Shown in pieces: positions 751 through 46,620 of a stretch of 64,000 nt of DNA. The position numbers were made by a program, and so were the translations under genes. The DNA lies in NCBI GenBank assembly GCA_041662545.1, contig JBAZSH010000002.1:2239-66238 (forward strand), written 5' to 3'. Each line of letters starts with the position of its first letter. Position 1 is the first letter of the stretch. The stretch comes from Minisyncoccota bacterium (GTDB lineage Bacteria > Patescibacteriota > Minisyncoccia > Phycocordibacterales > DSPV01). Below the pieces are notes generated by a model, which ran no database searches, was not told the origin of the DNA, and saw nothing but the letters and a program-made list of their open reading frames with translations.

Positions 751-4052
<3,302 letters not shown>

Positions 4053-4076
4053 ATTTTTTTACCTTTGAAAATTTTG

Positions 4077-4191
4077 TTTTGGTGACTCATCGCGGGGGCA
4101 ACACCTCTTCCCATTCCGAACAGAGCCGTTAAGCCCCGTTGAGGCGATGATATCTCGATTAATTTTGGGAGAAAGTAGCTAGTCGCCAAAA
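4077..4191 (+). rRNA. rrf: 5S ribosomal RNA
   Basis: CCCATTCCGAACAGAGCCGTTAAGCCC loop C/helix III motif; terminal helix ttttggtgac / gtcgccaaaa. Confidence 0.85.
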
Positions 4192-4217
4192 CAAAGTTTT
4201 TAATTTATACTATTATT

Positions 4218-4970
4218 ATGAGTATTTGGTCGGCTAAAAGAAAATTTTTTTACTTCGCCGGCGCAACTTTGTTTGTGTTGCTTTTTGTCGGTTTGCCGAT
4301 TTTTCTTTTGGTTTATCGTGTGCCAACTTGTTCAGATGGTAAACAAAATCAAGGTGAGACTGGAATTGATTGCGGTGGTTCTTGTCGGGCGGTGTGTGCT
4401 TCGGTTGCCATTGAACCAATTGTTTGGTGGCAAAGATTTTTCCAAATTTCTCCTGGTGTTTATAACACAGTCGCGCGTGTGGAAAATCCCAATACCGATT
4501 CGGCGGTAGCGCGAGCGAAATATATTTTTCGGTTGTATGATAAAGCCAACGCTGTAATTGCTTGGAGAGAGGGTGAGACCAATATTCCTCCCCACCAGAT
4601 TTTTTATATTTTTGAGGGTAGTTTATCAACTGGAGAACGCCTGCCTGTTAAAGCCACTTTTGAATTTGTCGCCCCACTTAATTGGGTTGTAGAAAAAACA
4701 TTAACACCACTTTCAGTTACCGGACAAATTTTATCCAAAACTTCGACCGTGCCCCGATTGGATGCGATTTTAAGGAACAATAGTGATAATGATGTTCACG
4801 ATGTGGAGTTGGTGGCAGTGATTTTTGACGCTGATGGCAACGCCATTAATGCTTCTAAGACTGTTATTGATGCGGTTCTTAGCGAATCAGCCGTGCCGTT
4901 CTTTTTCACTTGGCGTCAGCCGTTTGATAAGGAACCGACGCGGGTGGAAATAATTCCAAGGCTAAAGTGA
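4218..4970 (+). CDS. hypothetical membrane-anchored protein (N-terminal TM, Cys-rich segment)
   Basis: 250-aa ORF, hydrophobic N-terminus, stop overlaps start of next gene (ATGA). Confidence 0.5.
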   Translation: MSIWSAKRKFFYFAGATLFVLLFVGLPIFLLVYRVPTCSDGKQNQGETGIDCGGSCRAVCASVAIEPIVWWQRFFQISPGVYNTVARVENPNTDSAVARAKYIFRLYDKANAVIAWREGETNIPPHQIFYIFEGSLSTGERLPVKATFEFVAPLNWVVEKTLTPLSVTGQILSKTSTVPRLDAILRNNSDNDVHDVELVAVIFDADGNAINASKTVIDAVLSESAVPFFFTWRQPFDKEPTRVEIIPRLK

Positions 4971-6094
4971 AGCGGATTTTTTTGGCATTCAAAAATATTG
5001 ATTGGTTACTACTGGCAGCGGTTTTACCTTTGCTTTTTGCCGGTCTATCGGTAATGAATTCTTTTACTGGTGAGAGTCAGTATTATGACCGGCAGTTAGT
5101 TTGGATTGCCTTTGCGCTAGCCATCTTTTTTATCTTCAGTTTTATTGATTTTCGATTTCTCCGTTCTAGTGGTGTTTTGGTCGCTTTATTTTTAGCGGCT
5201 ATCGGCACTCTGTTGCTTTTGTTTTTTATTGCCAATGTTGTTCACGGTACCAAGAGTTGGTTTTCCATTGGAACTTTTTCATTTCAGCCTTCCGATCCAG
5301 CCAAATTGATTTTAATTTTAGTTTTAGCTAAATATTTTTCCCGTCGGCACATTGAAATCGCTGACCTCAAACATATTATTGTTTCTGGACTTTATGCTCT
5401 GCTAATTTTTCTTTTGGTTTTGTTTCAGCCGGATTTTGGCTCGGCGATTATAATTTTTATGATTTGGCTTGGTATGGTATTGGTCTCTGGCATTTCCAAA
5501 AAACATCTGCTCTTAGTTTTTTTGACAACCCTTTCTGTTTTTTTAGTAATGTGGAGTTTTGTTTTAGCTGATTATCAAAAACAACGGGTATTAACTTTTC
5601 TTAACCCACTAACTGATATCCAAGGTGCTGGTTACAACGCTTACCAATCAACTATCGCTGTTGGCTCCGGTGAACTTTTGGGCAAGGGGGTTGGTTATGG
5701 CACACAATCGCGTTTGAAATTTCTTCCCGAATACGAAACCGATTTTATTTTTGCCGCTTTTGCCGAAGAATGGGGTTTTGTCGGGGTGGTGATTTTGTTT
5801 GGATTGTTTGGGGTTGTCATCTGGCGAATTTTAGCCACCGCTTTTTATGGTGCAACCAATTTTGAAATCTTGTTTGGTCTCGGTTTGGTGATTTTTTTGA
5901 CTAGTCATTTTGCTGTGCATATTGGTATGAATATTGGTTTGTTGCCAGTAACTGGTGTAACTTTACCATTCTTGAGTTATGGTGGCTCGCACCTTCTGAC
6001 CGAATTTGCTGGTCTTGGAATTTTGATGGGCATGCGCCGTTATCGCCGTGTTGCCCACAAAGAGGTAATGAAGAATGAATTTTTGGGGGTGTAA
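4967..6094 (+). CDS. FtsW/RodA/SpoVE family peptidoglycan glycosyltransferase
   Basis: 10-TM profile, conserved SEDS family blocks (GTKSWF, DFIFAAFAEEWGF, LPFLSYGGSHLL). Confidence 0.85.
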   Translation: MKRIFLAFKNIDWLLLAAVLPLLFAGLSVMNSFTGESQYYDRQLVWIAFALAIFFIFSFIDFRFLRSSGVLVALFLAAIGTLLLLFFIANVVHGTKSWFSIGTFSFQPSDPAKLILILVLAKYFSRRHIEIADLKHIIVSGLYALLIFLLVLFQPDFGSAIIIFMIWLGMVLVSGISKKHLLLVFLTTLSVFLVMWSFVLADYQKQRVLTFLNPLTDIQGAGYNAYQSTIAVGSGELLGKGVGYGTQSRLKFLPEYETDFIFAAFAEEWGFVGVVILFGLFGVVIWRILATAFYGATNFEILFGLGLVIFLTSHFAVHIGMNIGLLPVTGVTLPFLSYGGSHLLTEFAGLGILMGMRRYRRVAHKEVMKNEFLGV

Positions 6095-6127
6095 GACAAA
6101 TTATGGTTTTTTTGATAGTATTTAACT

Positions 6128-6409
6128 ATGTTAAAGCTTGAGGAAATAGAAAAGCTGGCGAAGTTGGCGCGATTGGAAATTCCGGCGGAGGAGAAGGAAA
6201 TTCTACGAAAAGAAGTGGGGGAAATTCTGGAGTATGTGGGGCAGATTCAACAACTTTCGCCCAAAGAACCGCCGAAGGAAGCGGGTGTTGTTCGCAATGT
6301 TTTTCGTGAAGATAAAGAACCGCATCAAACCAGTGAATTTACCGACGCACTTTTAGCTAATGTGCCGGAGAAAGAAAACGGTTACATCAAAGTCAAAAAG
6401 ATTTTATGA
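6128..6409 (+). CDS. gatC: Asp/Glu-tRNA amidotransferase subunit C
   Basis: 93 aa, EEIEKLAKLARLEI...GEILEYVGQIQQL typical GatC. Confidence 0.8.
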   Translation: MLKLEEIEKLAKLARLEIPAEEKEILRKEVGEILEYVGQIQQLSPKEPPKEAGVVRNVFREDKEPHQTSEFTDALLANVPEKENGYIKVKKIL

Positions 6410-7806
6410 AAATTGATTTAGAAAAATTGACGATTAAAAAAGCCCATGACGCTCTTTTGAAAAAAGAATTTTCGGCGCGGGATTTGACGGAGGCGTATTT
6501 GGCGGAAATTGATAAAAAAAATTCAGGACTGAACGCCTATTTGGAAGTTTTTGCCGATGCTTTAGAGCAAGCCGGCGCGGCGGATGAGAAGATAAAAAAA
6601 GGCGAGGTGGGTGTGCTAACCGGCATTCCGCTTGCCATCAAAGACAACATTTTGATAAAAGGTCGCCGCGCCGGCGCTGCTTCCAAAATTTTGGAGGGTT
6701 ATGTGGCGCCCTATGACGCAACGGTGATTAAGAAGCTCAAGGAAGCCGGCGCGGTTTTTTTGGGCCGCGTGAATATGGATGAATTTGCTATGGGTGGTTC
6801 CACTGAAAATTCCGCTTATGGTGTGACAAAAAATCCCCACGATGAGACACGCGTTTCGGGCGGCTCCTCCGGCGGTTCCGCCGCCTCCGTCGCCGCCAAT
6901 TTAGCGTTGGCAGCACTCGGTTCTGATACTGGTGGTTCTGTTCGTCAACCTGCCGCCTTTTGTGGCGTTGTCGGTTTGAAACCAACTTATGGTGCCGTTT
7001 CTCGTTCCGGTTTGATGGCAATGGGTTCGTCTTTAGATCAAATTGGACCTTTGGCAAAAACGGTGGAAGATGCGGAAATAATTTTTAATATCATCCGTGG
7101 ACAAGATCCAATGGACAGCACCACAATTTCTGAAAAAACTTATTCGCGCTTACCTTTACTGAAAAAATTTGTCATTGGCGTGCCTCGCGATTTTTTAGGT
7201 GAAGGTGTTGATAAAGAAGTTTTGGAAAATTTTGAAGTCGGATTGAAAAAACTAGAAAAAGCTGGCGTTGAAATTCGCGATATTGAATTACCAAATTTAA
7301 AATATTCTCTTCCCGCTTATTATATTATTATGCCAGCCGAAGTTTCTTCTAATCTGGCGCGTTTTGATGGCGTTAAGTTCGGGGCGAAAATTGCCGGCGC
7401 CAATCTTCTGGAAGATTATCTTAAAACCCGCGGCCAATTGTTTGGCAAAGAGGCGCGCCGCCGAATTATTCTCGGTACCTATGTCTTGTCTGCTGGTTAC
7501 TACGATGCTTATTACAACAAAGCTATTGCGGTACGAAAAATGATTGCCGACGACCTAAAAAAAGTTTTTGATTCTGGTATTCACGCTATTGCTACGCCCA
7601 TTACACCGACGCTCGCTTTCAAAATCGGCGAAAAAATAAACGACCCGCTTCAGATGTATCTTGCAGATATTTTTACCGTGACTGCCAATATTACTGGCAT
7701 ACCCGCCATTTCTATTCCATCTGGTTCCACCGGCTTCCAACTTCAAGCTCCTTGGGGTCGCGAAGATATCCTCTTTGAAATTGGTGAGAAGTTTGAGAAG
7801 ATATAA
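6406..7806 (+). CDS. gatA: Asp/Glu-tRNA amidotransferase subunit A (amidase signature)
   Basis: amidase signature GGSSGGSAASVA, catalytic Ser-cisSer-Lys context; overlaps gatC stop. Confidence 0.9.
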   Translation: MKIDLEKLTIKKAHDALLKKEFSARDLTEAYLAEIDKKNSGLNAYLEVFADALEQAGAADEKIKKGEVGVLTGIPLAIKDNILIKGRRAGAASKILEGYVAPYDATVIKKLKEAGAVFLGRVNMDEFAMGGSTENSAYGVTKNPHDETRVSGGSSGGSAASVAANLALAALGSDTGGSVRQPAAFCGVVGLKPTYGAVSRSGLMAMGSSLDQIGPLAKTVEDAEIIFNIIRGQDPMDSTTISEKTYSRLPLLKKFVIGVPRDFLGEGVDKEVLENFEVGLKKLEKAGVEIRDIELPNLKYSLPAYYIIMPAEVSSNLARFDGVKFGAKIAGANLLEDYLKTRGQLFGKEARRRIILGTYVLSAGYYDAYYNKAIAVRKMIADDLKKVFDSGIHAIATPITPTLAFKIGEKINDPLQMYLADIFTVTANITGIPAISIPSGSTGFQLQAPWGREDILFEIGEKFEKI

Positions 7807-7808
7807 TC

Positions 7809-9320
7809 ATGGCCGAAGATAAAAAAGAAAAAAAAGATAAAAGTTCAACCACCGGTTTTGGGGAGGTTTTTTTAATCCTCATAGTACTTTTCTTTTTGTG
7901 GCGCGCTCTCGCTGGTGCTTTCGCTGGTGGGATAGGTGGTGTCGGCGATTTTTTCAATCGTCTTAATATTTCATTAAATCCTTTTTCCAATACTGCGCCA
8001 TTGGGATCGATTTATTTAGAAAAGGATGAAACGCTAATTGGCAAGACGGTTTTCAACAAGGAAAACGGCAAAGTCGGCAAAATTGTCAGTGGTCCAGAAC
8101 TTAGGAATGGTAATCGTTATTGGTCGGTAAGTTATGATGACGGCACCAATGGTTGGGTGGCGGAAGACGCGTTGAGCGAGCCGGTCGCTATAAAGTTTAT
8201 TCCGGGCGAAACTCCGGTTGGTGAACGCGCCGTTGCTGATGGTCCAATGCCAGTTTACGATAAGCCGGGCGGTTTAGTGATTGGCAATCAATTGGACGGT
8301 TCGCCCGGCACCATTACCAAGGGTCCGGAAAATTTCGGTGGCAAAGATTATTTTTTCATGGATTTTGATAATGGTCCGGATGGTTGGGTCGTCGCTGATA
8401 AATTGACTGATGAAAACGGTGTGCCGATTAAATACGGCAAAACTGCTCTCGGCGGTTCTGTTATGACGAAAGACGGGAAAATTGGGAAAATTACTCAAGG
8501 TCCGGAATTTAGAAATGGCGAACGCCACTGGTTTGTCCAATTTCTAGACGGCAGTAGTGGTTGGGTAAAAGAGAGTGATTTATTTGGCGTTGGGCTAAAA
8601 AATTTTGATGCTGGTAATCAGATAATTGGTATGAAAGTGGCGGTGGCGCAGAGCACGGCGGTCTATGACGAACCAGGTGGAAATATTATCGGTTACCAAA
8701 AAAGAGGCACGAGCGGCACGATTTTTAAAGGTCCGCTTCTTGGTGCTGATGGCAAGCGCTATTGGTTTGTGGATTTTGAAAATGTCGAGGATGGTTGGGT
8801 GGCGGAAGATAATTTGTTTGTCATCGTGGAACATCCCTTAGCGAACAAATTCTCGTCTTTGGCGAGTTCCGCGTTGACAATTTTCAATCTTTTTATGTTG
8901 ACTGGTATTGTTTATACTTTAATCAGAATAATTCAAATTTCTTCAGCTCATAGTCATAAGATAAAAGTTGAGGAGACCAAAATGCGAGTTGGTCGAGAAG
9001 TTTCGCATCCGCGTTGGGAAAAAGTCCGAGATCATTTGTCATCGGAAAATCCGAGCGATTGGCGATTGGCGGTAATGGAAGCCGATATCATTCTAGGTGA
9101 GATGCTGGAAAAAATGGGTTACATAAAAGGGGAAACGATTGGTGATAAATTAAAAACCATTGAAAAAAGTGATTTTACTTCTCTGGATCAGGCCTGGGAA
9201 GCCCACCGAATTCGCAATATGATTGCCCACGAAGGCGCTGATTATATTTTAACTGACCGCGAAGCCAAGCGCGTGATAGGTCTTTATGAGCAGGTGTTTA
9301 AAGAGTTTAGATATATTTAA
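7809..9320 (+). CDS. membrane protein with 4 SH3b-like repeats (predicted extracytoplasmic) and C-terminal HEPN-like (RNxxxH, DUF4145-like) domain
   Basis: N-terminal KK-rich + TM; four ~45-60 aa repeats each ending ...G(N/S)xGWV(A/K)E(D)xL; second TM (LTIFNLFMLTGIVYTLIRII); C-terminal helical domain with HRIRNMIAHEG (R-x4-H / R-N-x3-H HEPN motif). Confidence 0.5.
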   Translation: MAEDKKEKKDKSSTTGFGEVFLILIVLFFLWRALAGAFAGGIGGVGDFFNRLNISLNPFSNTAPLGSIYLEKDETLIGKTVFNKENGKVGKIVSGPELRNGNRYWSVSYDDGTNGWVAEDALSEPVAIKFIPGETPVGERAVADGPMPVYDKPGGLVIGNQLDGSPGTITKGPENFGGKDYFFMDFDNGPDGWVVADKLTDENGVPIKYGKTALGGSVMTKDGKIGKITQGPEFRNGERHWFVQFLDGSSGWVKESDLFGVGLKNFDAGNQIIGMKVAVAQSTAVYDEPGGNIIGYQKRGTSGTIFKGPLLGADGKRYWFVDFENVEDGWVAEDNLFVIVEHPLANKFSSLASSALTIFNLFMLTGIVYTLIRIIQISSAHSHKIKVEETKMRVGREVSHPRWEKVRDHLSSENPSDWRLAVMEADIILGEMLEKMGYIKGETIGDKLKTIEKSDFTSLDQAWEAHRIRNMIAHEGADYILTDREAKRVIGLYEQVFKEFRYI

Positions 9321-9956
9321 ATGCGAAAAAGTGAAATCATAATTTTGGTGGTAACGGTCGTGGCGTTTGTGGTTGCTTATTTAATTTATCCCGTCTTGCC
9401 GGAGAAGATGGCATCGCATTGGAATGCGGCCGGCGAAGTCAATGGTTATATGAGCCGATTTTGGACGGTGGCGATGTTACCTTTTATGATGGCGATTTTT
9501 TCGCTGATGTTTATTTTAATTCCACGCATTGACCCGCTCAAAAAAAATATTGCCCAGTTCCGGAAATATTTTGACTGGTTTATTTTTGCCATTACCGCCT
9601 TTTTGGTTTATGTTTACGCTCTGACAATTTTGTGGAACTTTGGCTGGCGATTTAATTTTGCCGTGGTGATGACGCCGGCTCTGGCCGCGTTGTTTTATTT
9701 TTCCGGAGTTCTGATGAGCAAAGCCAAGCGCAATTATTTTATCGGTATTCGGACGCCCTGGACTTTATCAAATGATGTTGTTTGGGATAAAACTCATCGA
9801 TTAGCCGCGAAGCTTTTTAAATGGGCTGCCGGTTTTTCCTTAATTGGAATTTTCTTTGGAAAACTCGCCATTTATTTTGTTCTTATTCCGGTTGTTGCCG
9901 CTGCTCTGATTTCTGTTGTCTATTCCTATGTCGCCTATAGGCAAGAAGTAAAATAG
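9321..9956 (+). CDS. DUF1648/SdpI-like integral membrane protein
   Basis: N-terminal TM then HWNAAGEVNGY motif, 4-5 TM segments. Confidence 0.5.
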   Translation: MRKSEIIILVVTVVAFVVAYLIYPVLPEKMASHWNAAGEVNGYMSRFWTVAMLPFMMAIFSLMFILIPRIDPLKKNIAQFRKYFDWFIFAITAFLVYVYALTILWNFGWRFNFAVVMTPALAALFYFSGVLMSKAKRNYFIGIRTPWTLSNDVVWDKTHRLAAKLFKWAAGFSLIGIFFGKLAIYFVLIPVVAAALISVVYSYVAYRQEVK

Positions 9957-9979
9957 TCGTCGTGATATAATAAATCTCA

Positions 9980-10738
9980 ATGGATTATCTTTGGGGTTTA
10001 TTTATTTTGGCGATTGGGGCAATAGTAGGTAGTTTTTTGAATGTGGTTGCCTTACGATATGGCACAGGTAAATCGCCATTAACCGGTCGGTCGTTTTGTT
10101 CGGCTTGTAATAGAAAACTTTCTGCCGTTGATCTGGTGCCAGTTTTTAGTTTTATTTTTCTTGGTGGCAAGTGCCGAACTTGCAAGGCAAAAATTTCTTG
10201 GCAATATCCGCTAGTGGAAATCCTGACCGCTATTATTTTTCTTTTTCTGTTTAAGTCGCCATTGGCGCTGGTTGCTTGGTGTATTTTGATTGTTATTATG
10301 ATTTACGATTGGCGGCACAAAATTATTCCCGACGGTTTGGCTTTGGCTTTTGGTATTTTGACTTTAGTAATGGCGATTTTGGCCAATTTTGACGGTAACT
10401 TGTTTTTGGCGTTACTTTGGGGTCCACTTTTTGCCACGCCATTTTTCTTACTCTGGTATTTTTCCGGCGGCAAATGGATGGGTTTAGGCGACGCTAAACT
10501 CGGTTTGGGATTGGGCTGGCTTTTGGGCGTTAAAAGCTTTGACGCTTTTATTTGGGCCTTTTGGATTGGCGCGGCGGTTTCTTTGCTAATTGTTTTTTGG
10601 CAAAGCTGGCAAAAGAATCAGAAAAAGCTTACAATGAAGAGCGAAGTGCCGTTTGCCCCTTTTCTATTTGTGGCAACTTTTCTGGTTTATTTTTTCAATA
10701 TCAGCGCACTCGGTTTAATTAATAATTTATTTTATTAA
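9980..10738 (+). CDS. pilD: prepilin peptidase (A24 family, PilD-like)
   Basis: zinc-binding CSACNRK...CRTCK tetracysteine motif, multiple TM, catalytic Asp context. Confidence 0.8.
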   Translation: MDYLWGLFILAIGAIVGSFLNVVALRYGTGKSPLTGRSFCSACNRKLSAVDLVPVFSFIFLGGKCRTCKAKISWQYPLVEILTAIIFLFLFKSPLALVAWCILIVIMIYDWRHKIIPDGLALAFGILTLVMAILANFDGNLFLALLWGPLFATPFFLLWYFSGGKWMGLGDAKLGLGLGWLLGVKSFDAFIWAFWIGAAVSLLIVFWQSWQKNQKKLTMKSEVPFAPFLFVATFLVYFFNISALGLINNLFY

Positions 10739-11337
10739 TGTCACAGATTACACCTCACAGGTTGTCAAATAGTCGGGGTTTTACTCTCATTGAGACAATG
10801 GTTGCCTTGGGAATTTTTGTAATAGTTACCACCATTGTTTTCGTGGGTAATGGCCGTTTCAATAATACTCTTCTTTTGACCAACTTGGCTTACGATTTAG
10901 CATTAACCGTATCGCGAGCGCAATCCTATGGTATCAATGTCAGGCCATTTGACGATGCCACCAAGCCATTTGAGGTTGGCTATGGTGTTCATTTTAAGCT
11001 TGGTACTACAGTTGACCCCAAAGAATCAGATAAAGTTTCTTTTGTTTTATTTGCTGATATAAATAACAGTAAAAATTATACCACCGATGAATTTTTGGAG
11101 CGTTATCTTATTCGTCACGGTAATAAAATCAGTAAACTCTGGTTCACTTCTGATGGTAATTCGATTAATGAACTTAATATTACTTTCCTTAGGCCCAATC
11201 CCGATGCTATATTTAACTGTGTTGGTTGTTCTGGCGCTAGTAAAGTTGGCATAGAGGTTTCTTCAGCGGATGGTGTTACCACAAAAGTTATTACTATTGA
11301 ATCAACGGGACAAATTTCCGTTCAGTCAAAAATATGA
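10738..11337 (+). CDS. type IV pilin-like (class III signal peptide) protein
   Basis: leader ending ...SRG|FTLIETMVALGIFVIV prepilin N-methylation motif. Confidence 0.75.
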   Translation: MSQITPHRLSNSRGFTLIETMVALGIFVIVTTIVFVGNGRFNNTLLLTNLAYDLALTVSRAQSYGINVRPFDDATKPFEVGYGVHFKLGTTVDPKESDKVSFVLFADINNSKNYTTDEFLERYLIRHGNKISKLWFTSDGNSINELNITFLRPNPDAIFNCVGCSGASKVGIEVSSADGVTTKVITIESTGQISVQSKI

Positions 11338-11858
11338 ATTGGAACTTGGAACTTGGAACTTGGAAATTCCGCGCCAGCGGCGGGTTCAGTTTAGTGGAGA
11401 TTCTTGTTTCCCTCGCCATTTTTTCTGTGGTGATGGTAACGGCCGCAGGTGCTTTATTAACAACTATTGATGCCAACCACAAAGCTCAAGCTGTTCAATT
11501 AGCAGTGAATAATTTAAGTTTTGCTTTGGAAAGTATGTCGCGACCGATTCGGGAAGGCAATAGTTATCCTGCGGATGGAGTCAGTAGTTCCTTCACTTTC
11601 AAAAAAAATGATAGTAGTGAAGTTTCTTATTATTTAGACAATGGCCGAATTATGCGAAAAGAGGGGGGCAATTTAGCTCAAGCCATTACCTCATTAGGAG
11701 TTACGGTAACTAAATTAGCGTTTTATGTAAGTGGATCAAGTGATCCAAAAAAACAACCACTGGTAACGATTGTTATTCAAGGCACAGCTGGTGAGACGGC
11801 AAAAATCCAGACCACATTTAATTTGCAAACGACTTTATCACAAAGAATACCAAGATGA
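11334..11858 (+). CDS. type IV pilin-like protein
   Basis: ...ASGG|FSLVEILVSLAIF prepilin motif. Confidence 0.75.
   Translation: MNWNLELGTWKFRASGGFSLVEILVSLAIFSVVMVTAAGALLTTIDANHKAQAVQLAVNNLSFALESMSRPIREGNSYPADGVSSSFTFKKNDSSEVSYYLDNGRIMRKEGGNLAQAITSLGVTVTKLAFYVSGSSDPKKQPLVTIVIQGTAGETAKIQTTFNLQTTLSQRIPR
11339..11366 (+). repeat. tandem octamer repeat (tggaactt x3) inside pilin leader coding region
   Basis: aattggaacttggaacttggaacttggaaatt read directly. Confidence 0.9.
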
Positions 11859-12400
11859 TAAAAAACACAAAAAAAGGATTTACGCTTATAGAAACTCTGG
11901 TGGCAATTGCGATTTTGCTTTTGGCAGTAACAGCACCTTTGTCATTGGCGAATAAGAGTTTGAATTCTGCTTCTTTGTCAAAACAACAGATCATCGCTAG
12001 CTTTTTGGCGCAGGAAGCGATGGAATATATTCGCAATGTCCGTGATGAAAATGTTCTCAAACACAATGGCAGTTGGTTGCACCCAGATAGTGGTATTCAG
12101 TTTTGTTTCAACGGCAAATGCACCGTGGAACCGACGGGCACTTCTGGCACTGATAAAATAAAAAAGTGTCAGGAAACAGGTGGTAGTTGTCTACCATTGC
12201 GATTTGATCCATCAAATGGTGTTTATAGTTATTCTGACGGTGGCGACACCGAAGAATCCATTTACACCCGTTTTGCGCAAATGGACGAAATAGAAAATGA
12301 CGAAGAGGTGGCGGTCTTGGTGACGGTCTCGTGGCAGGGAACAAATGGCGCGAATTATGAAGTCGTCGCCCGTGAGAATTTAACCAATTGGCAATTTTAA
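11855..12400 (+). CDS. type IV pilin-like protein
   Basis: KKG|FTLIETLVAIAILLLAV prepilin motif. Confidence 0.75.
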   Translation: MIKNTKKGFTLIETLVAIAILLLAVTAPLSLANKSLNSASLSKQQIIASFLAQEAMEYIRNVRDENVLKHNGSWLHPDSGIQFCFNGKCTVEPTGTSGTDKIKKCQETGGSCLPLRFDPSNGVYSYSDGGDTEESIYTRFAQMDEIENDEEVAVLVTVSWQGTNGANYEVVARENLTNWQF

Positions 12401-12401
12401 A

Positions 12402-14955
<2,554 letters not shown>

Positions 14956-14984
14956 ATTAAAAATGTTTGTGATATAATATTTTT

Positions 14985-17405
14985 ATGGACAAAAATAAAG
15001 CAAACATAATTTGGTTTAAGGATTTGGGAATTGAGGATGTGCCGATTGTCGGCGGTAAGAACGCGGCATTGGGTGAAATGTTTGCTAACCTAACCCAGCT
15101 CGGTATTAATGTGCCGAATGGTTTTGCCATCACCGCCCAGGCCTATAACAACTTTTTGGACAAAGCCGGCATTCGGGTGGGTATGGAAAAAATTCTAAAA
15201 GATTTAGACACTGGTAATATGCGAGCGTTACAGAAAGCCGGCAAGCAAACCCGTAAATTAATTTTGAAAAGTAATTTGCCGAAAGAATTGGAATATGAAA
15301 TTGCCGCCGCCTATAAAGAATTAGGCAAGCAATTTGGTACCGAAGAGCCGGATGTGGCCGTGCGTTCGTCGGCAACAGCAGAGGATTTACCCGACGCTAG
15401 TTTTGCTGGTCAGCAAGAAACTTATTTGAATATCGTTGGTGTTAAAGATTTGCTTTACGCTGTTAAAGAATGTATCGCTTCGCTTTTTACCGATCGGGCA
15501 ATTTCTTACAGAAAAGACAAGGGATTTTCTAGTACGGGAGTGGCGCTGTCGGTGGGTGTGCAAAAAATGGCGCGCGCCGACAAAGGCATTTCAGGTGTGG
15601 CTTTTTCTATTGATACCGAAACCGGTTTTGATAAGGTGGTGGTTATTGATGCTTCCTACGGTTTGGGTGAAATGATTGTTCAAGGCAAGGTAACGCCGGA
15701 CGAATTTGTAGTTTTTAAGCCGACATTGGCTGAAGGCAAACGCGCCATCATTGCCCGCGACATTGGAGTGAAAGATGTGAAAATGATTTATGGTCGTAGG
15801 GGGACTGAAATTGTAAAAACTTCACCGGCCGAGCAGGCGGTATTGTGTTTAACTGATGATGAGATTTTGAAATTGGCTGATTGGGTCGTAAAAATTGAAA
15901 AATATTTTTCCGATAAAAAAGGCCATTATCAGCCGATGGACACCGAATGGGCGAAAGATGGTGTTTCGGGAGAATTATTTATTGTCCAAGCTCGGCCGGA
16001 AACGGTTCAGGCGATGCGTGATAAAACTCTTTACATTGAGTATCGTTTGAAAGAAAAGGGGAAAGTTTTGACGACCGGCACAGCAGTGGGCGCAAAAATT
16101 TCCACCGGGAAAGTGCGAGTGATCCGCGATGCGAAAAATATCGGTCGGTTTCAAAAAGGTGAAGTTTTGGTAACGGAAATTACTGATCCTGATTGGGAAC
16201 CGATTATGAAAATTGCCAGCGCTATTGTCACTGACAAAGGTGGTCGCACCAGCCACGCGGCCATTGTTTCGCGCGAGTTGGGCATCACTTGTATTGTTGG
16301 CGCTGTTAATGCCACTAAAGTTTTGCGTGATGGTATGGAAGTAACAGTAGATTCGTCGGGTCCAGTTGGTTCTGTTTATGAAGGTAATTTACCGTTTGAA
16401 AAAATTGAGCATCGCTTAGATAAAATTCCCGAGACCAAGACCAAAATTATGGTCAATATCGGTTCTCCCGATGAGGCCTTTGAAAAATGGCAATTGCCGG
16501 TGAAAGGTGTTGGTTTGGGGCGATTGGAATTTATCATTACCGAGCATATTAAAATTCACCCTAACGCTCTGATTGATTATGAAAAATTGAAAGCCGATTC
16601 TGGTAATGCTGAAAAACAGAAAATCGTTCAGGAAATTGATAAGCTAACCGTTGGCTATACCAACAAGACCGATTTCTATGTTAGCGAATTGGCCGAGGGC
16701 GTGGCAAAAATCGCCGCTGCTTTTTACCCCCACGAAGTGATCATTCGTTTTTCTGATTTCAAAACAAATGAATACCGAACTTTGGTTGGTGGCGCGCTTT
16801 ACGAGCCGGTTGAAGAAAATCCAATGATCGGTTGGCGTGGCGCTTCAAGATACTATGATCTTAAGTTTAAAGAAGCGTTCGGCTTGGAATGCCGGGCCTT
16901 AAAAAAAGTGCGTGAGGAAATCGGTTTGAAGAATGTTTCTACCCTAATTCCATTTTGTCGGACGCCGGAAGAAGGCAAACAGGTTTTGGAAGCGATGAAA
17001 ATTAATGGTTTGGAACGCGGCCAAAATGATCTCAAGGTTTACATTATGTGCGAGATTCCTTCCAACATTCTTTTGGCGGACGAGTTTTTGGAAATTTGTG
17101 ATGGTATGTCTATTGGCTCAAATGATTTGACCCAACTAACACTTGGTTTGGATCGGGACTCGGGTATTGTTGCCAAGATTGCCAATGAAAGAAATCCGGC
17201 GGTGAAAAAACTTATTGCCGAGATTATTAAAAAGTGTAAAGAAAAAAATAAATACATCGGTATTTGCGGCCAAGCGCCTTCCGATTTTCCTGATTATGCT
17301 GAGTTTTTGGTGGAGCAGGGAATTGAGAGTATCTCCTTAAATCCCGATACCATTATCAAAACTTTGGAATTAGTGGCGGAGAAAGAAAAACAACTTGGCA
17401 AGTAG
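14985..17405 (+). CDS. ppsA: phosphoenolpyruvate synthase (pyruvate, water dikinase)
   Basis: N-terminal ATP-grasp (VAVRSSATAEDLPDASFAGQ), mobile His domain (GGRTSHAAIVSRELGITCIVG), C-terminal PEP-binding TIM barrel. Confidence 0.85.
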   Translation: MDKNKANIIWFKDLGIEDVPIVGGKNAALGEMFANLTQLGINVPNGFAITAQAYNNFLDKAGIRVGMEKILKDLDTGNMRALQKAGKQTRKLILKSNLPKELEYEIAAAYKELGKQFGTEEPDVAVRSSATAEDLPDASFAGQQETYLNIVGVKDLLYAVKECIASLFTDRAISYRKDKGFSSTGVALSVGVQKMARADKGISGVAFSIDTETGFDKVVVIDASYGLGEMIVQGKVTPDEFVVFKPTLAEGKRAIIARDIGVKDVKMIYGRRGTEIVKTSPAEQAVLCLTDDEILKLADWVVKIEKYFSDKKGHYQPMDTEWAKDGVSGELFIVQARPETVQAMRDKTLYIEYRLKEKGKVLTTGTAVGAKISTGKVRVIRDAKNIGRFQKGEVLVTEITDPDWEPIMKIASAIVTDKGGRTSHAAIVSRELGITCIVGAVNATKVLRDGMEVTVDSSGPVGSVYEGNLPFEKIEHRLDKIPETKTKIMVNIGSPDEAFEKWQLPVKGVGLGRLEFIITEHIKIHPNALIDYEKLKADSGNAEKQKIVQEIDKLTVGYTNKTDFYVSELAEGVAKIAAAFYPHEVIIRFSDFKTNEYRTLVGGALYEPVEENPMIGWRGASRYYDLKFKEAFGLECRALKKVREEIGLKNVSTLIPFCRTPEEGKQVLEAMKINGLERGQNDLKVYIMCEIPSNILLADEFLEICDGMSIGSNDLTQLTLGLDRDSGIVAKIANERNPAVKKLIAEIIKKCKEKNKYIGICGQAPSDFPDYAEFLVEQGIESISLNPDTIIKTLELVAEKEKQLGK

Positions 17406-17433
17406 CCATTATTCTTGTAGTTTAATTGTTGTT

Positions 17434-17517
17434 GCCGTGGTGGCGGAATTGGTATACGCGCTGCGTTCAGGACGCAGTTCCAGCAATGGATTGAGAGTTC
17501 AAATCTCTCCCACGGCA
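17434..17517 (+). tRNA. tRNA-Leu (anticodon CAG)
   Basis: 84 nt cloverleaf with long variable arm; anticodon loop cTTCAGGAc; acceptor gccgtgg/cacggc. Confidence 0.8.
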
Positions 17518-17670
17518 TTGGTTTGACCAGTGATTATAGGGTTGACAGATTTTGTGGGGTGTGCTAGGCTATTGGCAGTTAATTAAAACAGGGTGTTCTA
17601 GTCACTCTGTTTTCGTTCCAAAAAAACAAACGCGATTTACTAGGAATCGCAAAATTCCTGAAAGGATCAA

Positions 17671-46308: not shown

Positions 46309-46620
46309 TCTACATCTCGCGTCTATAAGCCGAATTCTGTATTCCGATTTTTACATCGGAACGATGGCCATTTATCTAGCCCCGATGTTGCCAGCGGGGT
46401 CAAGCGGCACTTCCCCCGCCGAGGCGGGGGACACGGCCTTGCAGCCAGGTAAGGATTTAGCACGTTTCAGCCGGACTTAACCGGGTCGTTTCTGTTCGCA
46501 CCTCGTGGATTACTCCAGACGGGCGTTACCCGCTACCCTTTTATCTCCCGCTTAGCGGGAGAAGCAGTTCGGACTTTCCTCTCTCCGCCTAAGGCGGAGA
46601 GCAGCCATCCAACGCGAAAC
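46308..46620 (-). ncRNA. rnpB: RNase P RNA (bacterial type, reduced)
   Basis: reverse strand shows P3 hairpin ctctccgccttaggcggagag followed by P4 AGGAAAGTCCG, AAGGGTAGCGGGTAACGCCCG (J11/12-like GGTAACGCC), and 3' P4 strand ACAGAATTCGGCTTAT; local GC-rich island in AT-rich genome. Confidence 0.8.

Follow-up and report, generated by a model that had tools for sequence, protein, structure and literature searches.

Gene and protein architecture

The DNA analysed here, a stretch of 64,000 nucleotides (64 kb) from contig JBAZSH010000002.1 of a Minisyncoccota bacterium (referred to below as the window), carries directly behind gatC and gatA a gene for a two-pass membrane protein with a predicted C-terminal HEPN domain. 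An initial annotation had placed the open reading frame (ORF) at 7809-9320, and exactly this interval was recovered, encoding 503 amino acids (aa). The start codon is an ATG located 2 nt past the stop codon of gatA. The gene product is identical to WC673_00680, a protein from a metagenome-assembled genome that is listed at NCBI as 'hypothetical protein' of Candidatus Paceibacterota, and a scan of the protein against NCBIfam returned only noise. The gene and the segments of its product, all on the + strand, are given below together with the underlying evidence. Abbreviations are AF2 AlphaFold2, HMM hidden Markov model, K+R lysine plus arginine, pLDDT predicted local distance difference test, TM transmembrane segment.

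7809-9320 (+): whole gene; its 503-aa product spans the membrane twice and has SH3-like repeats plus a HEPN domain; stop codon at 9318-9320 (ORF list)
7809-7856 (+): lysine-rich N-terminal tail, aa 1-16, MAEDKKEKKDKSSTTG, predicted to be cytoplasmic (sequence; positive-inside statistics of the family)
7857-7925 (+): TM1, aa 17-39 (hydropathy peak at aa 20-38; AF2 helix 17-39)
8007-8180 (+): SH3-like repeat 1, aa 67-124, short type A (repeat HMM, E 4.6e-20; weak Pfam matches to Tudor_5, GW and SH3_16; beta strands with pLDDT >85)
8238-8414 (+): SH3-like repeat 2, aa 144-202, long type B (repeat HMM, E 1.8e-22; AF2 beta barrel)
8415-8591 (+): SH3-like repeat 3, aa 203-261, type A (repeat HMM, E 4.5e-20; AF2 beta barrel)
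8646-8825 (+): SH3-like repeat 4, aa 280-339, type B (repeat HMM, E 2e-26; AF2 beta barrel)
8856-8936 (+): TM2, aa 350-376, within a continuous helix of aa 343-396 (hydropathy; AF2 helix 343-396)
8937-9005 (+): basic juxtamembrane stalk, aa 377-399, on the cytoplasmic side (5 K/R in 23 aa; K+R statistics of 187 relatives)
9006-9317 (+): HEPN domain, aa 400-503, consisting of helix 1, helix 2, a conserved insert, helix 3 and helix 4
9078-9086 (+): E424-A-D426, at the acidic position of helix 2 that is conserved in the active sites of HEPN domains (alignments; PMC3710099)
9204-9230 (+): H466-R-I-R469-N470-M-I-A-H474, Rx4H catalytic motif in which N follows R, closing helix 3 (alignments; position in the AF2 model)

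Hydropathy revealed two transmembrane segments, at aa 17-39 and approximately 350-376, and the full-length AF2 model (mean pLDDT 79.8) shows helices at 17-39 and 343-396. TM2 is part of the latter, unbroken helix, which runs into the C-terminal helical domain. Counts of lysine and arginine around the transmembrane segments indicate an N-in/C-in orientation in 167 of 187 two-TM relatives, with a mean of 3.4 such residues after TM2 vs 1.4 before it. These data are in line with the topology put forward in the initial annotation, that is, a lysine-rich N-terminus followed by TM1, an ectodomain, TM2 and a cytoplasmic C-terminus.

The C-terminal HEPN domain

HEPN domains, which make up Pfam clan CL0291, are characterised by an Rx4-6H motif that ends helix 3 and has a polar residue (N, D or H) after the arginine; helix 2 contributes a conserved acidic residue near the motif and is separated from helix 3 by an insert (Anantharaman, Makarova, Burroughs, Koonin & Aravind 2013, PMC3710099). 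The same work also covers the role of this acid. An AF2 model of aa 376-503, built from 45 family sequences, reached a pLDDT of 86 and places the motif at the C-terminal end of the third core helix (helix 84-103 in domain numbering), with E424 and D426 located within helix 40-60. The conserved insert GxTxGDKLKxxExSDF sits between the E424/D426 helix and the motif helix. Across the alignments H466, R469, N470 and H474 are invariant, as is D426, while E424 is kept in at least 90%. The RNxxxH motif was found in all of the 316 collected relatives (316/316), so that the R..H residues are missing in no ortholog; such conservation goes far beyond chance. Judged from the model, the C-terminal domain fits each published HEPN feature, namely the motif position, the polar residue after the arginine, the helix-2 acid and the insert.

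Family members were furthermore scanned one at a time against Pfam, and weak, sub-threshold matches were counted per HEPN family. Among 45 members, these matches fell to HEPN_Swt1 (27), RiboL-PSP (8), Cthe_2314 (7), DUF4145 (6), Ymh (5) and pEK499_p136 (1). The best E-values were 3.2e-4 for HEPN_Swt1 (PF18731) and 2.4e-4 for DUF4145 (PF13643), both below the gathering score. The C-terminal domain of the window protein gave no match to the DUF4145 and HEPN_Swt1 models at E <= 10, and no second copy of the HEPN domain was found in the 64-kb window. Weak matches to HEPN families, the helix position in the model and the invariant residues together agree with the assignment in the initial annotation, and the domain is, as modelled, a HEPN domain with a canonical catalytic motif. 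By analogy with what is established for HEPN proteins, the intact motif suggests ribonuclease (RNase) activity.

SH3-like repeats in the ectodomain

Between the two transmembrane segments, the protein contains four repeats of approximately 58-60 aa apiece, all with a terminal GWV, of which repeats 1 and 3 are short and repeats 2 and 4 long (A-B-A-B). The repeat HMM scores these copies with E-values from 2e-26 to 5e-20 and detected no further ones in the 64-kb window. In the AF2 model the repeats are all-beta (pLDDT 85-95) and form an SH3-like five-strand beta barrel. On the whole window protein the Pfam model Tudor_5 just reached its cut-off (31.2 vs 31 bits), while SH3_3 (8.1 bits) and GW (14 bits) stayed below theirs, and weak matches to SH3_16 and SH3_4 were seen as well. 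When 44 repeats of the family were compared to Pfam, SH3_3 (PF08239) was the commonest match (18/44, best E 6.2e-7), followed by Tudor_5 and GW, and precomputed PF08239 or PF13457 annotations exist for some of the homologs. A Foldseek search with the full model returned the model of the Bacillus subtilis amidase YrvJ at the top (E 6e-8), followed by tandem Tudor proteins, KOW proteins and a phage endolysin. YrvJ is a multi-SH3b protein, and the endolysin carries SH3_3. The four alternating SH3b-like repeats noted in the initial annotation are therefore borne out by their alternation, the GWV endings, the repeat HMM, the SH3-fold matches and the mostly weak Pfam matches, and 'SH3b-like' is a fair label for them. 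Their putative ligand is most likely a cell-wall or surface glycopolymer.

A large family with an optional ectodomain

The size of the family was determined with a HEPN-domain profile search, using E <= 1e-3 for clusters at 50% identity. At 50% identity the search gave no fewer than 2,916 clusters, 761 of them at E <= 1e-30, and at 90% identity no fewer than 5,940. The family occurs in at least 579 species genomes, and all but one of these are labelled as Patescibacteria, as a lineage of the Candidate Phyla Radiation (CPR) or as unclassified. The family is carried by Paceibacterota, Parcubacteria and their candidate phyla, and it appears to be confined to the Paceibacteria/Parcubacteria. All source-given names of its members are 'hypothetical' or 'uncharacterized'. 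A 3.4-kb contig labelled 'Nitrospira sp.' (JBEBJM010000069.1, L078 in our set of loci) has a Paceibacteria-type gatA-HEPN pair; this contig is probably mis-binned and gives no evidence of the family beyond the Patescibacteria.

The conserved layout of the family is TM1, loop, TM2, basic linker and HEPN domain, with a median protein length of approximately 215 aa (82 species genomes, HEPN-profile scan). In the short forms, the loop between TM1 and TM2 comprises only about 20-40 aa and is free of domains. The number of SH3-like repeats per protein varies from 0 to 6, and they are missing in 185 of 294 proteins, although this sample was enriched for repeat-bearing forms. The SH3 ectodomain is an optional loop insertion that is absent from most members, and the invariant feature is the membrane tethering of the catalytic HEPN domain. 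The idea of a sensor-coupled HEPN protein, as proposed in the initial annotation, is weakened, since most members have a loop of only about 20-40 aa. In a rough neighbour-joining tree of the HEPN domain the SH3-bearing forms cluster, the nearest neighbour sharing the same state in 85% of cases vs 53% expected. The same tree implies approximately 40 changes of the SH3 state and, with about 107 columns, is too weak to separate many gains and losses from poor resolution.

Linkage to gatC and gatA

The HEPN gene is preceded by the following conserved and presumed operon partners, which were identified by Pfam GatC and Amidase and together cover 6128-7806.

6128-6409 (+): gatC
6406-7806 (+): gatA

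To the gene in the window we compared 83 loci (L001-L083), consisting of three divergent homologs that were looked up singly and 80 species-representative genomes; loci with upstream sequence present were counted as informative. In 82 of 82 informative loci, gatA lies directly upstream of the HEPN gene on the same strand. From the gatA stop codon to the first in-frame ATG the median distance is 21 nt, and it is <=50 nt in 68 of these 82 loci. In the window, the junctions amount to 2 nt between gatA and the HEPN gene and 0 nt between the HEPN gene and the next gene. Because of the 2-nt junction, the HEPN gene is probably co-transcribed with gatC and gatA. The usual order among the loci is pilins, ligA, gatC, gatA and HEPN gene, and a pilin-ligA block is located upstream of gatC in nearly all related genomes (L001-L083). 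The equivalent block of the window (9980-14955; prepilin peptidase, four pseudopilin-like genes and ligA) is found downstream of the HEPN gene instead, pointing to a local rearrangement with gatCA-HEPN left intact.

Identity to the window protein ranges from 47 to 67% for the HEPN domain vs 55 to 71% for GatA in the same genomes. Because the two ranges are comparable, the HEPN domain is, as far as these sequence identities tell, under purifying selection comparable to that on a housekeeping enzyme.

A gatB gene was not found beside gatC-gatA in the window or in the 83 related loci, nor in the gaps between ligA and gatC, and the place of gatB in classical gatCAB operons is taken here by the HEPN gene. 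The ORFs in the ligA-gatC gaps appear to be asparaginase-like, acyltransferase-like or of other kinds, as judged by sequence alone. In one Taylorbacteria locus (L011, approximately 835-2185, - strand), a 290-aa ORF that resembles asparaginase/GatD in sequence is inserted, in reverse orientation, between ligA and gatC.

Other features of the neighbourhood

Downstream of the HEPN gene no conserved partner was detected; the best candidates, prfB-like and ftsE-like genes, occur in only 8-10 of 56 loci. In the window, an SdpI/DUF1648 membrane protein is encoded at 9321-9956 (+), starting at the base after the HEPN stop codon. None of the 83 other loci has an SdpI/DUF1648 gene beside the HEPN gene, and this neighbour is specific to the window. 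Free-standing ORFs resembling homing endonucleases of the LAGLIDADG type were observed a few hundred bases past the HEPN gene in seven related genomes (7 loci in all), two examples of which are given here.

L001, 8007-8714: LAGLIDADG-type ORF
L063, 4812-5477: LAGLIDADG-type ORF

Housekeeping genes prevail in the wider window, with 23S and 5S rRNA, ftsW, ligA and RNase P RNA, while pilD and pilins are nearby; two ORFs were tentatively taken by eye as secA and leuS. The 23S rRNA gene at 765-4037 (+) is interrupted by a group I intron (3358-3641), and the 5S rRNA gene comes next at 4078-4191. Intron-bearing rRNA genes are a known trait of the CPR. A bacterial class A RNase P RNA is encoded at 46310-46620 (-) and a tRNA-Leu(CAG) at 17433-17518 (+). 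A promoter and terminator scan of 4000-15200 gave counts that were not above those of shuffled sequences.

Functional interpretation

With modest confidence, we interpret the gene as encoding a lineage-core, membrane-tethered HEPN endoribonuclease of the Paceibacteria (Patescibacteria/CPR) that has a cellular role and is not a mobile phage-defence module. Its place after gatCA is fixed, and it therefore looks like a core cellular gene; vertical inheritance and the probable co-transcription with gatC-gatA likewise speak for a conserved cellular role. Characterised HEPN RNases are metal-independent endoribonucleases whose active site is formed by a face-to-face pair of domains (PMC3710099), and canonical dimers are also described in bioRxiv 10.1101/2021.11.02.466367. 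In the protein described here, the N-terminal tail would lie in the cytoplasm, as would the C-terminal HEPN domain, whereas the loop between the transmembrane segments would be extracytoplasmic and carry, in this case, four SH3b/GW-like barrels. By analogy, two HEPN domains may pair face to face, so that two R-N-x3-H motifs would create a metal-independent RNase site. Since a rigid TM2-stalk helix would hold each partner in the membrane, activity might be set by lateral dimerisation, similar to Ire1. In SH3-bearing members, binding of the ectodomain to wall or surface polymers could bias this dimerisation. The enzyme may serve in RNA processing or turnover, or in a stress-triggered cleavage of RNA at the membrane.

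Several points weigh against this interpretation. In the scans of the window protein and the 45 members, no Pfam HEPN model reached its gathering score. A search of PDB sequences with the HEPN-alignment profile yielded nothing significant, with MukF at E 0.03; HepS was likewise non-significant (E 0.86), though its alignment spans the RN...H motif. The steady adjacency to gatCA could mean co-regulation only. Furthermore, ligand-controlled activation cannot be a general mechanism, because most family members are without the ectodomain. Finally, Csx28, a HEPN protein with a transmembrane segment, acts as a pore and not as an RNase (bioRxiv 10.1101/2021.11.02.466367).

The initial annotation had proposed an envelope-sensing effector of abortive infection or defence, in which the SH3 repeats would sense phage adsorption or envelope damage and switch on the HEPN RNase, leading to a shutdown of translation. 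Such a role matches the general bias of HEPN domains towards conflict systems, but the evidence points elsewhere, and we consider it very unlikely. A PADLOC-DB scan with the whole protein returned 0 families at E <= 10, and no relatives were present in 2.9 million viral contigs of IMG/VR. Inheritance is vertical, the position behind gatCA is fixed in all 82 informative genomes while the downstream region is not conserved, divergence is comparable to that of GatA, and most members have no sensing ectodomain at all. The initial annotation had also suggested looking at conservation of the neighbourhood and co-occurrence with defence genes; this led to the same gatCA locus in each case, with housekeeping neighbours and no antitoxin, MNT or defence genes nearby.

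The linkage itself could point to a tRNA-directed nuclease or quality-control factor that is coupled to the GatCA(B) transamidosome and acts on tRNAGln or tRNAAsn or gates translation at the membrane. The adjacency to gatC-gatA is invariant and tight over class-level divergence and was kept in the window, where the ligA-pilin block has moved; moreover, no gatB adjoins them, its classical slot being taken by the HEPN gene. Several HEPN RNases, among them PrrC, RloC and some HepT proteins, cut tRNA. PMC3710099 counts PrrC and RloC among the HEPN RNases. Nevertheless, gene adjacency is the sole evidence, unrelated core genes of a reduced genome may keep their order because they are expressed together, and tethering to the membrane has no obvious relation to tRNA transamidation, so that we regard this role as unlikely. 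Quite unlikely, in our view, is a non-nucleolytic membrane HEPN protein that would, as Csx28 does, oligomerise into a pore or scaffold, or else bind a nucleotide or protein partner, with the R, N and H residues being structural or used for binding. The precedent of Csx28 is real (bioRxiv 10.1101/2021.11.02.466367), but its motif is divergent and it is linked to Cas13b; CRISPR or cas features were not noted among the housekeeping genes and RNAs identified in the window, though no specific search was made for them. Non-catalytic HEPN domains typically lose the Rx4-6H motif (PMC3710099), whereas here R, N and H are invariant in all relatives and accompanied by the helix-2 acid.

Returning to the membrane-tethered endoribonuclease, a more far-reaching version may be put forward, although we hold it to be rather doubtful. 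In this version, a HEPN RNase would have been domesticated throughout the class Paceibacteria to serve universally in housekeeping or signalling, with vertical inheritance; it would be a membrane-tethered bacterial counterpart of Ire1 or Las1, co-expressed with GatCA. Such an enzyme might process or cleave tRNA or mRNA in step with transamidation or, in some lineages, translate envelope or host-contact signals received by the SH3 repeats into RNA cleavage.

To our knowledge, HEPN domains of bacteria have nearly all been described as toxins of conflict systems, i.e. toxin-antitoxin, abortive infection (Abi), CRISPR and restriction-modification systems, and HEPN RNases in core physiology have so far been documented mainly in eukaryotes (Ire1, Las1). 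The intact motif, the fixation in a housekeeping operon over hundreds of Paceibacteria species and a rate of change about as slow as that of GatA suggest that a HEPN RNase was recruited to bacterial core physiology. Thousands of CPR 'hypothetical proteins' would thereby gain a name and a testable activity, and the SH3-bearing subgroup would be a natural candidate for a link between the cell surface and RNA metabolism in host-dependent, ultra-small bacteria. If the gene were merely a conserved toxin-like gene, the annotation would still be useful, with modest general interest.

Comparison with known systems

Membrane-associated HEPN proteins are treated in a section of their own in PMC3710099, where possible external sensor domains and stimulus-dependent RNases similar to Ire1 are discussed, and a table row of the same paper lists a DUF4145-type HEPN domain fused to 'TM and SH3 (Firmicutes)'. 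The statement in the initial annotation that no system with such an arrangement had been described was thus overstated. As in the family presented here, an intact cytoplasmic HEPN domain is tethered by transmembrane segments, external domains may be present and stimulus-dependent RNA cleavage on the inner membrane face was proposed. The three groups described there differ in their architecture, namely a single transmembrane segment with a WP signature, a helical domain with one transmembrane segment, and a HEPN-2TM-Zn-ribbon arrangement. The Paceibacteria family, in contrast, combines an N-in transmembrane segment, a loop, a second transmembrane segment and a C-terminal HEPN domain, is fixed to gatCA, apparently restricted to the Paceibacteria and sub-threshold in Pfam. 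With the DUF4145 proteins of the Firmicutes that carry TM and SH3 domains, it was compared by their published description only.

HEPN_Swt1 (PF18731) and DUF4145 (PF13643) are the best sequence neighbours (27/45 and 6/45 weak matches), and the R-N-x3-H form is common to all; their members are mostly soluble and occur in restriction-modification or Abi contexts, and the matches of our family to them remain below threshold. A functional analogy exists to the KEN domain of Ire1 and RNase L and to C6orf70, with a luminal or extracytoplasmic domain, a transmembrane segment and a cytosolic HEPN RNase activated by dimerisation. Unlike Ire1, the Paceibacteria protein is without a kinase domain or a detectable specific sequence relationship and has two transmembrane segments and a bacterial SH3-type ectodomain. 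Csx28, the accessory protein of type VI-B CRISPR systems, is also a small bacterial protein with a transmembrane anchor and a HEPN-like four-helix bundle; it has only one transmembrane segment, uses a divergent motif structurally, forms pores and is tied to cas13b (bioRxiv 10.1101/2021.11.02.466367). A Csx28-type membrane HEPN protein was rejected as an identification of the window protein, as its neighbours are gatCA, pilD, pilins and ligA and not cas13b, and its motif is canonical and invariant. From HepT/MNT and other HEPN toxins (SO_3166, 8xdj, 7ae2), the protein differs in being membrane-anchored, vertically inherited and non-mobile, with no adjoining MNT. A HEPN-MNT toxin-antitoxin pair (type II/VII) was discarded as well; the adjoining genes are gatA (Amidase) and SdpI/DUF1648, without an MNT antitoxin, and the downstream gene is not conserved. 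The ectodomain shares with SH3b and GW modules (SH3_3 PF08239, GW PF13457; YrvJ, InlB, phage endolysins) the tandem SH3-fold barrels, the G-W ending and the extracytoplasmic location. The repeats of the window protein differ in that they are sub-threshold for SH3_3 and GW, sit between two transmembrane segments and have no hydrolase attached.

A search of the literature on HEPN together with Patescibacteria, CPR, Parcubacteria or SH3b found no paper that describes the family. The general idea of a membrane HEPN protein with an external sensor is not new, nor is a similar combination of domains. As far as the searchable literature shows, what is new is a family that has two transmembrane segments followed by a C-terminal HEPN domain and that lies below every Pfam HEPN threshold, its wide spread in and apparent restriction to the Paceibacteria, and its constant position next to gatCA, by which it resembles a domesticated core HEPN gene and not a conflict gene.

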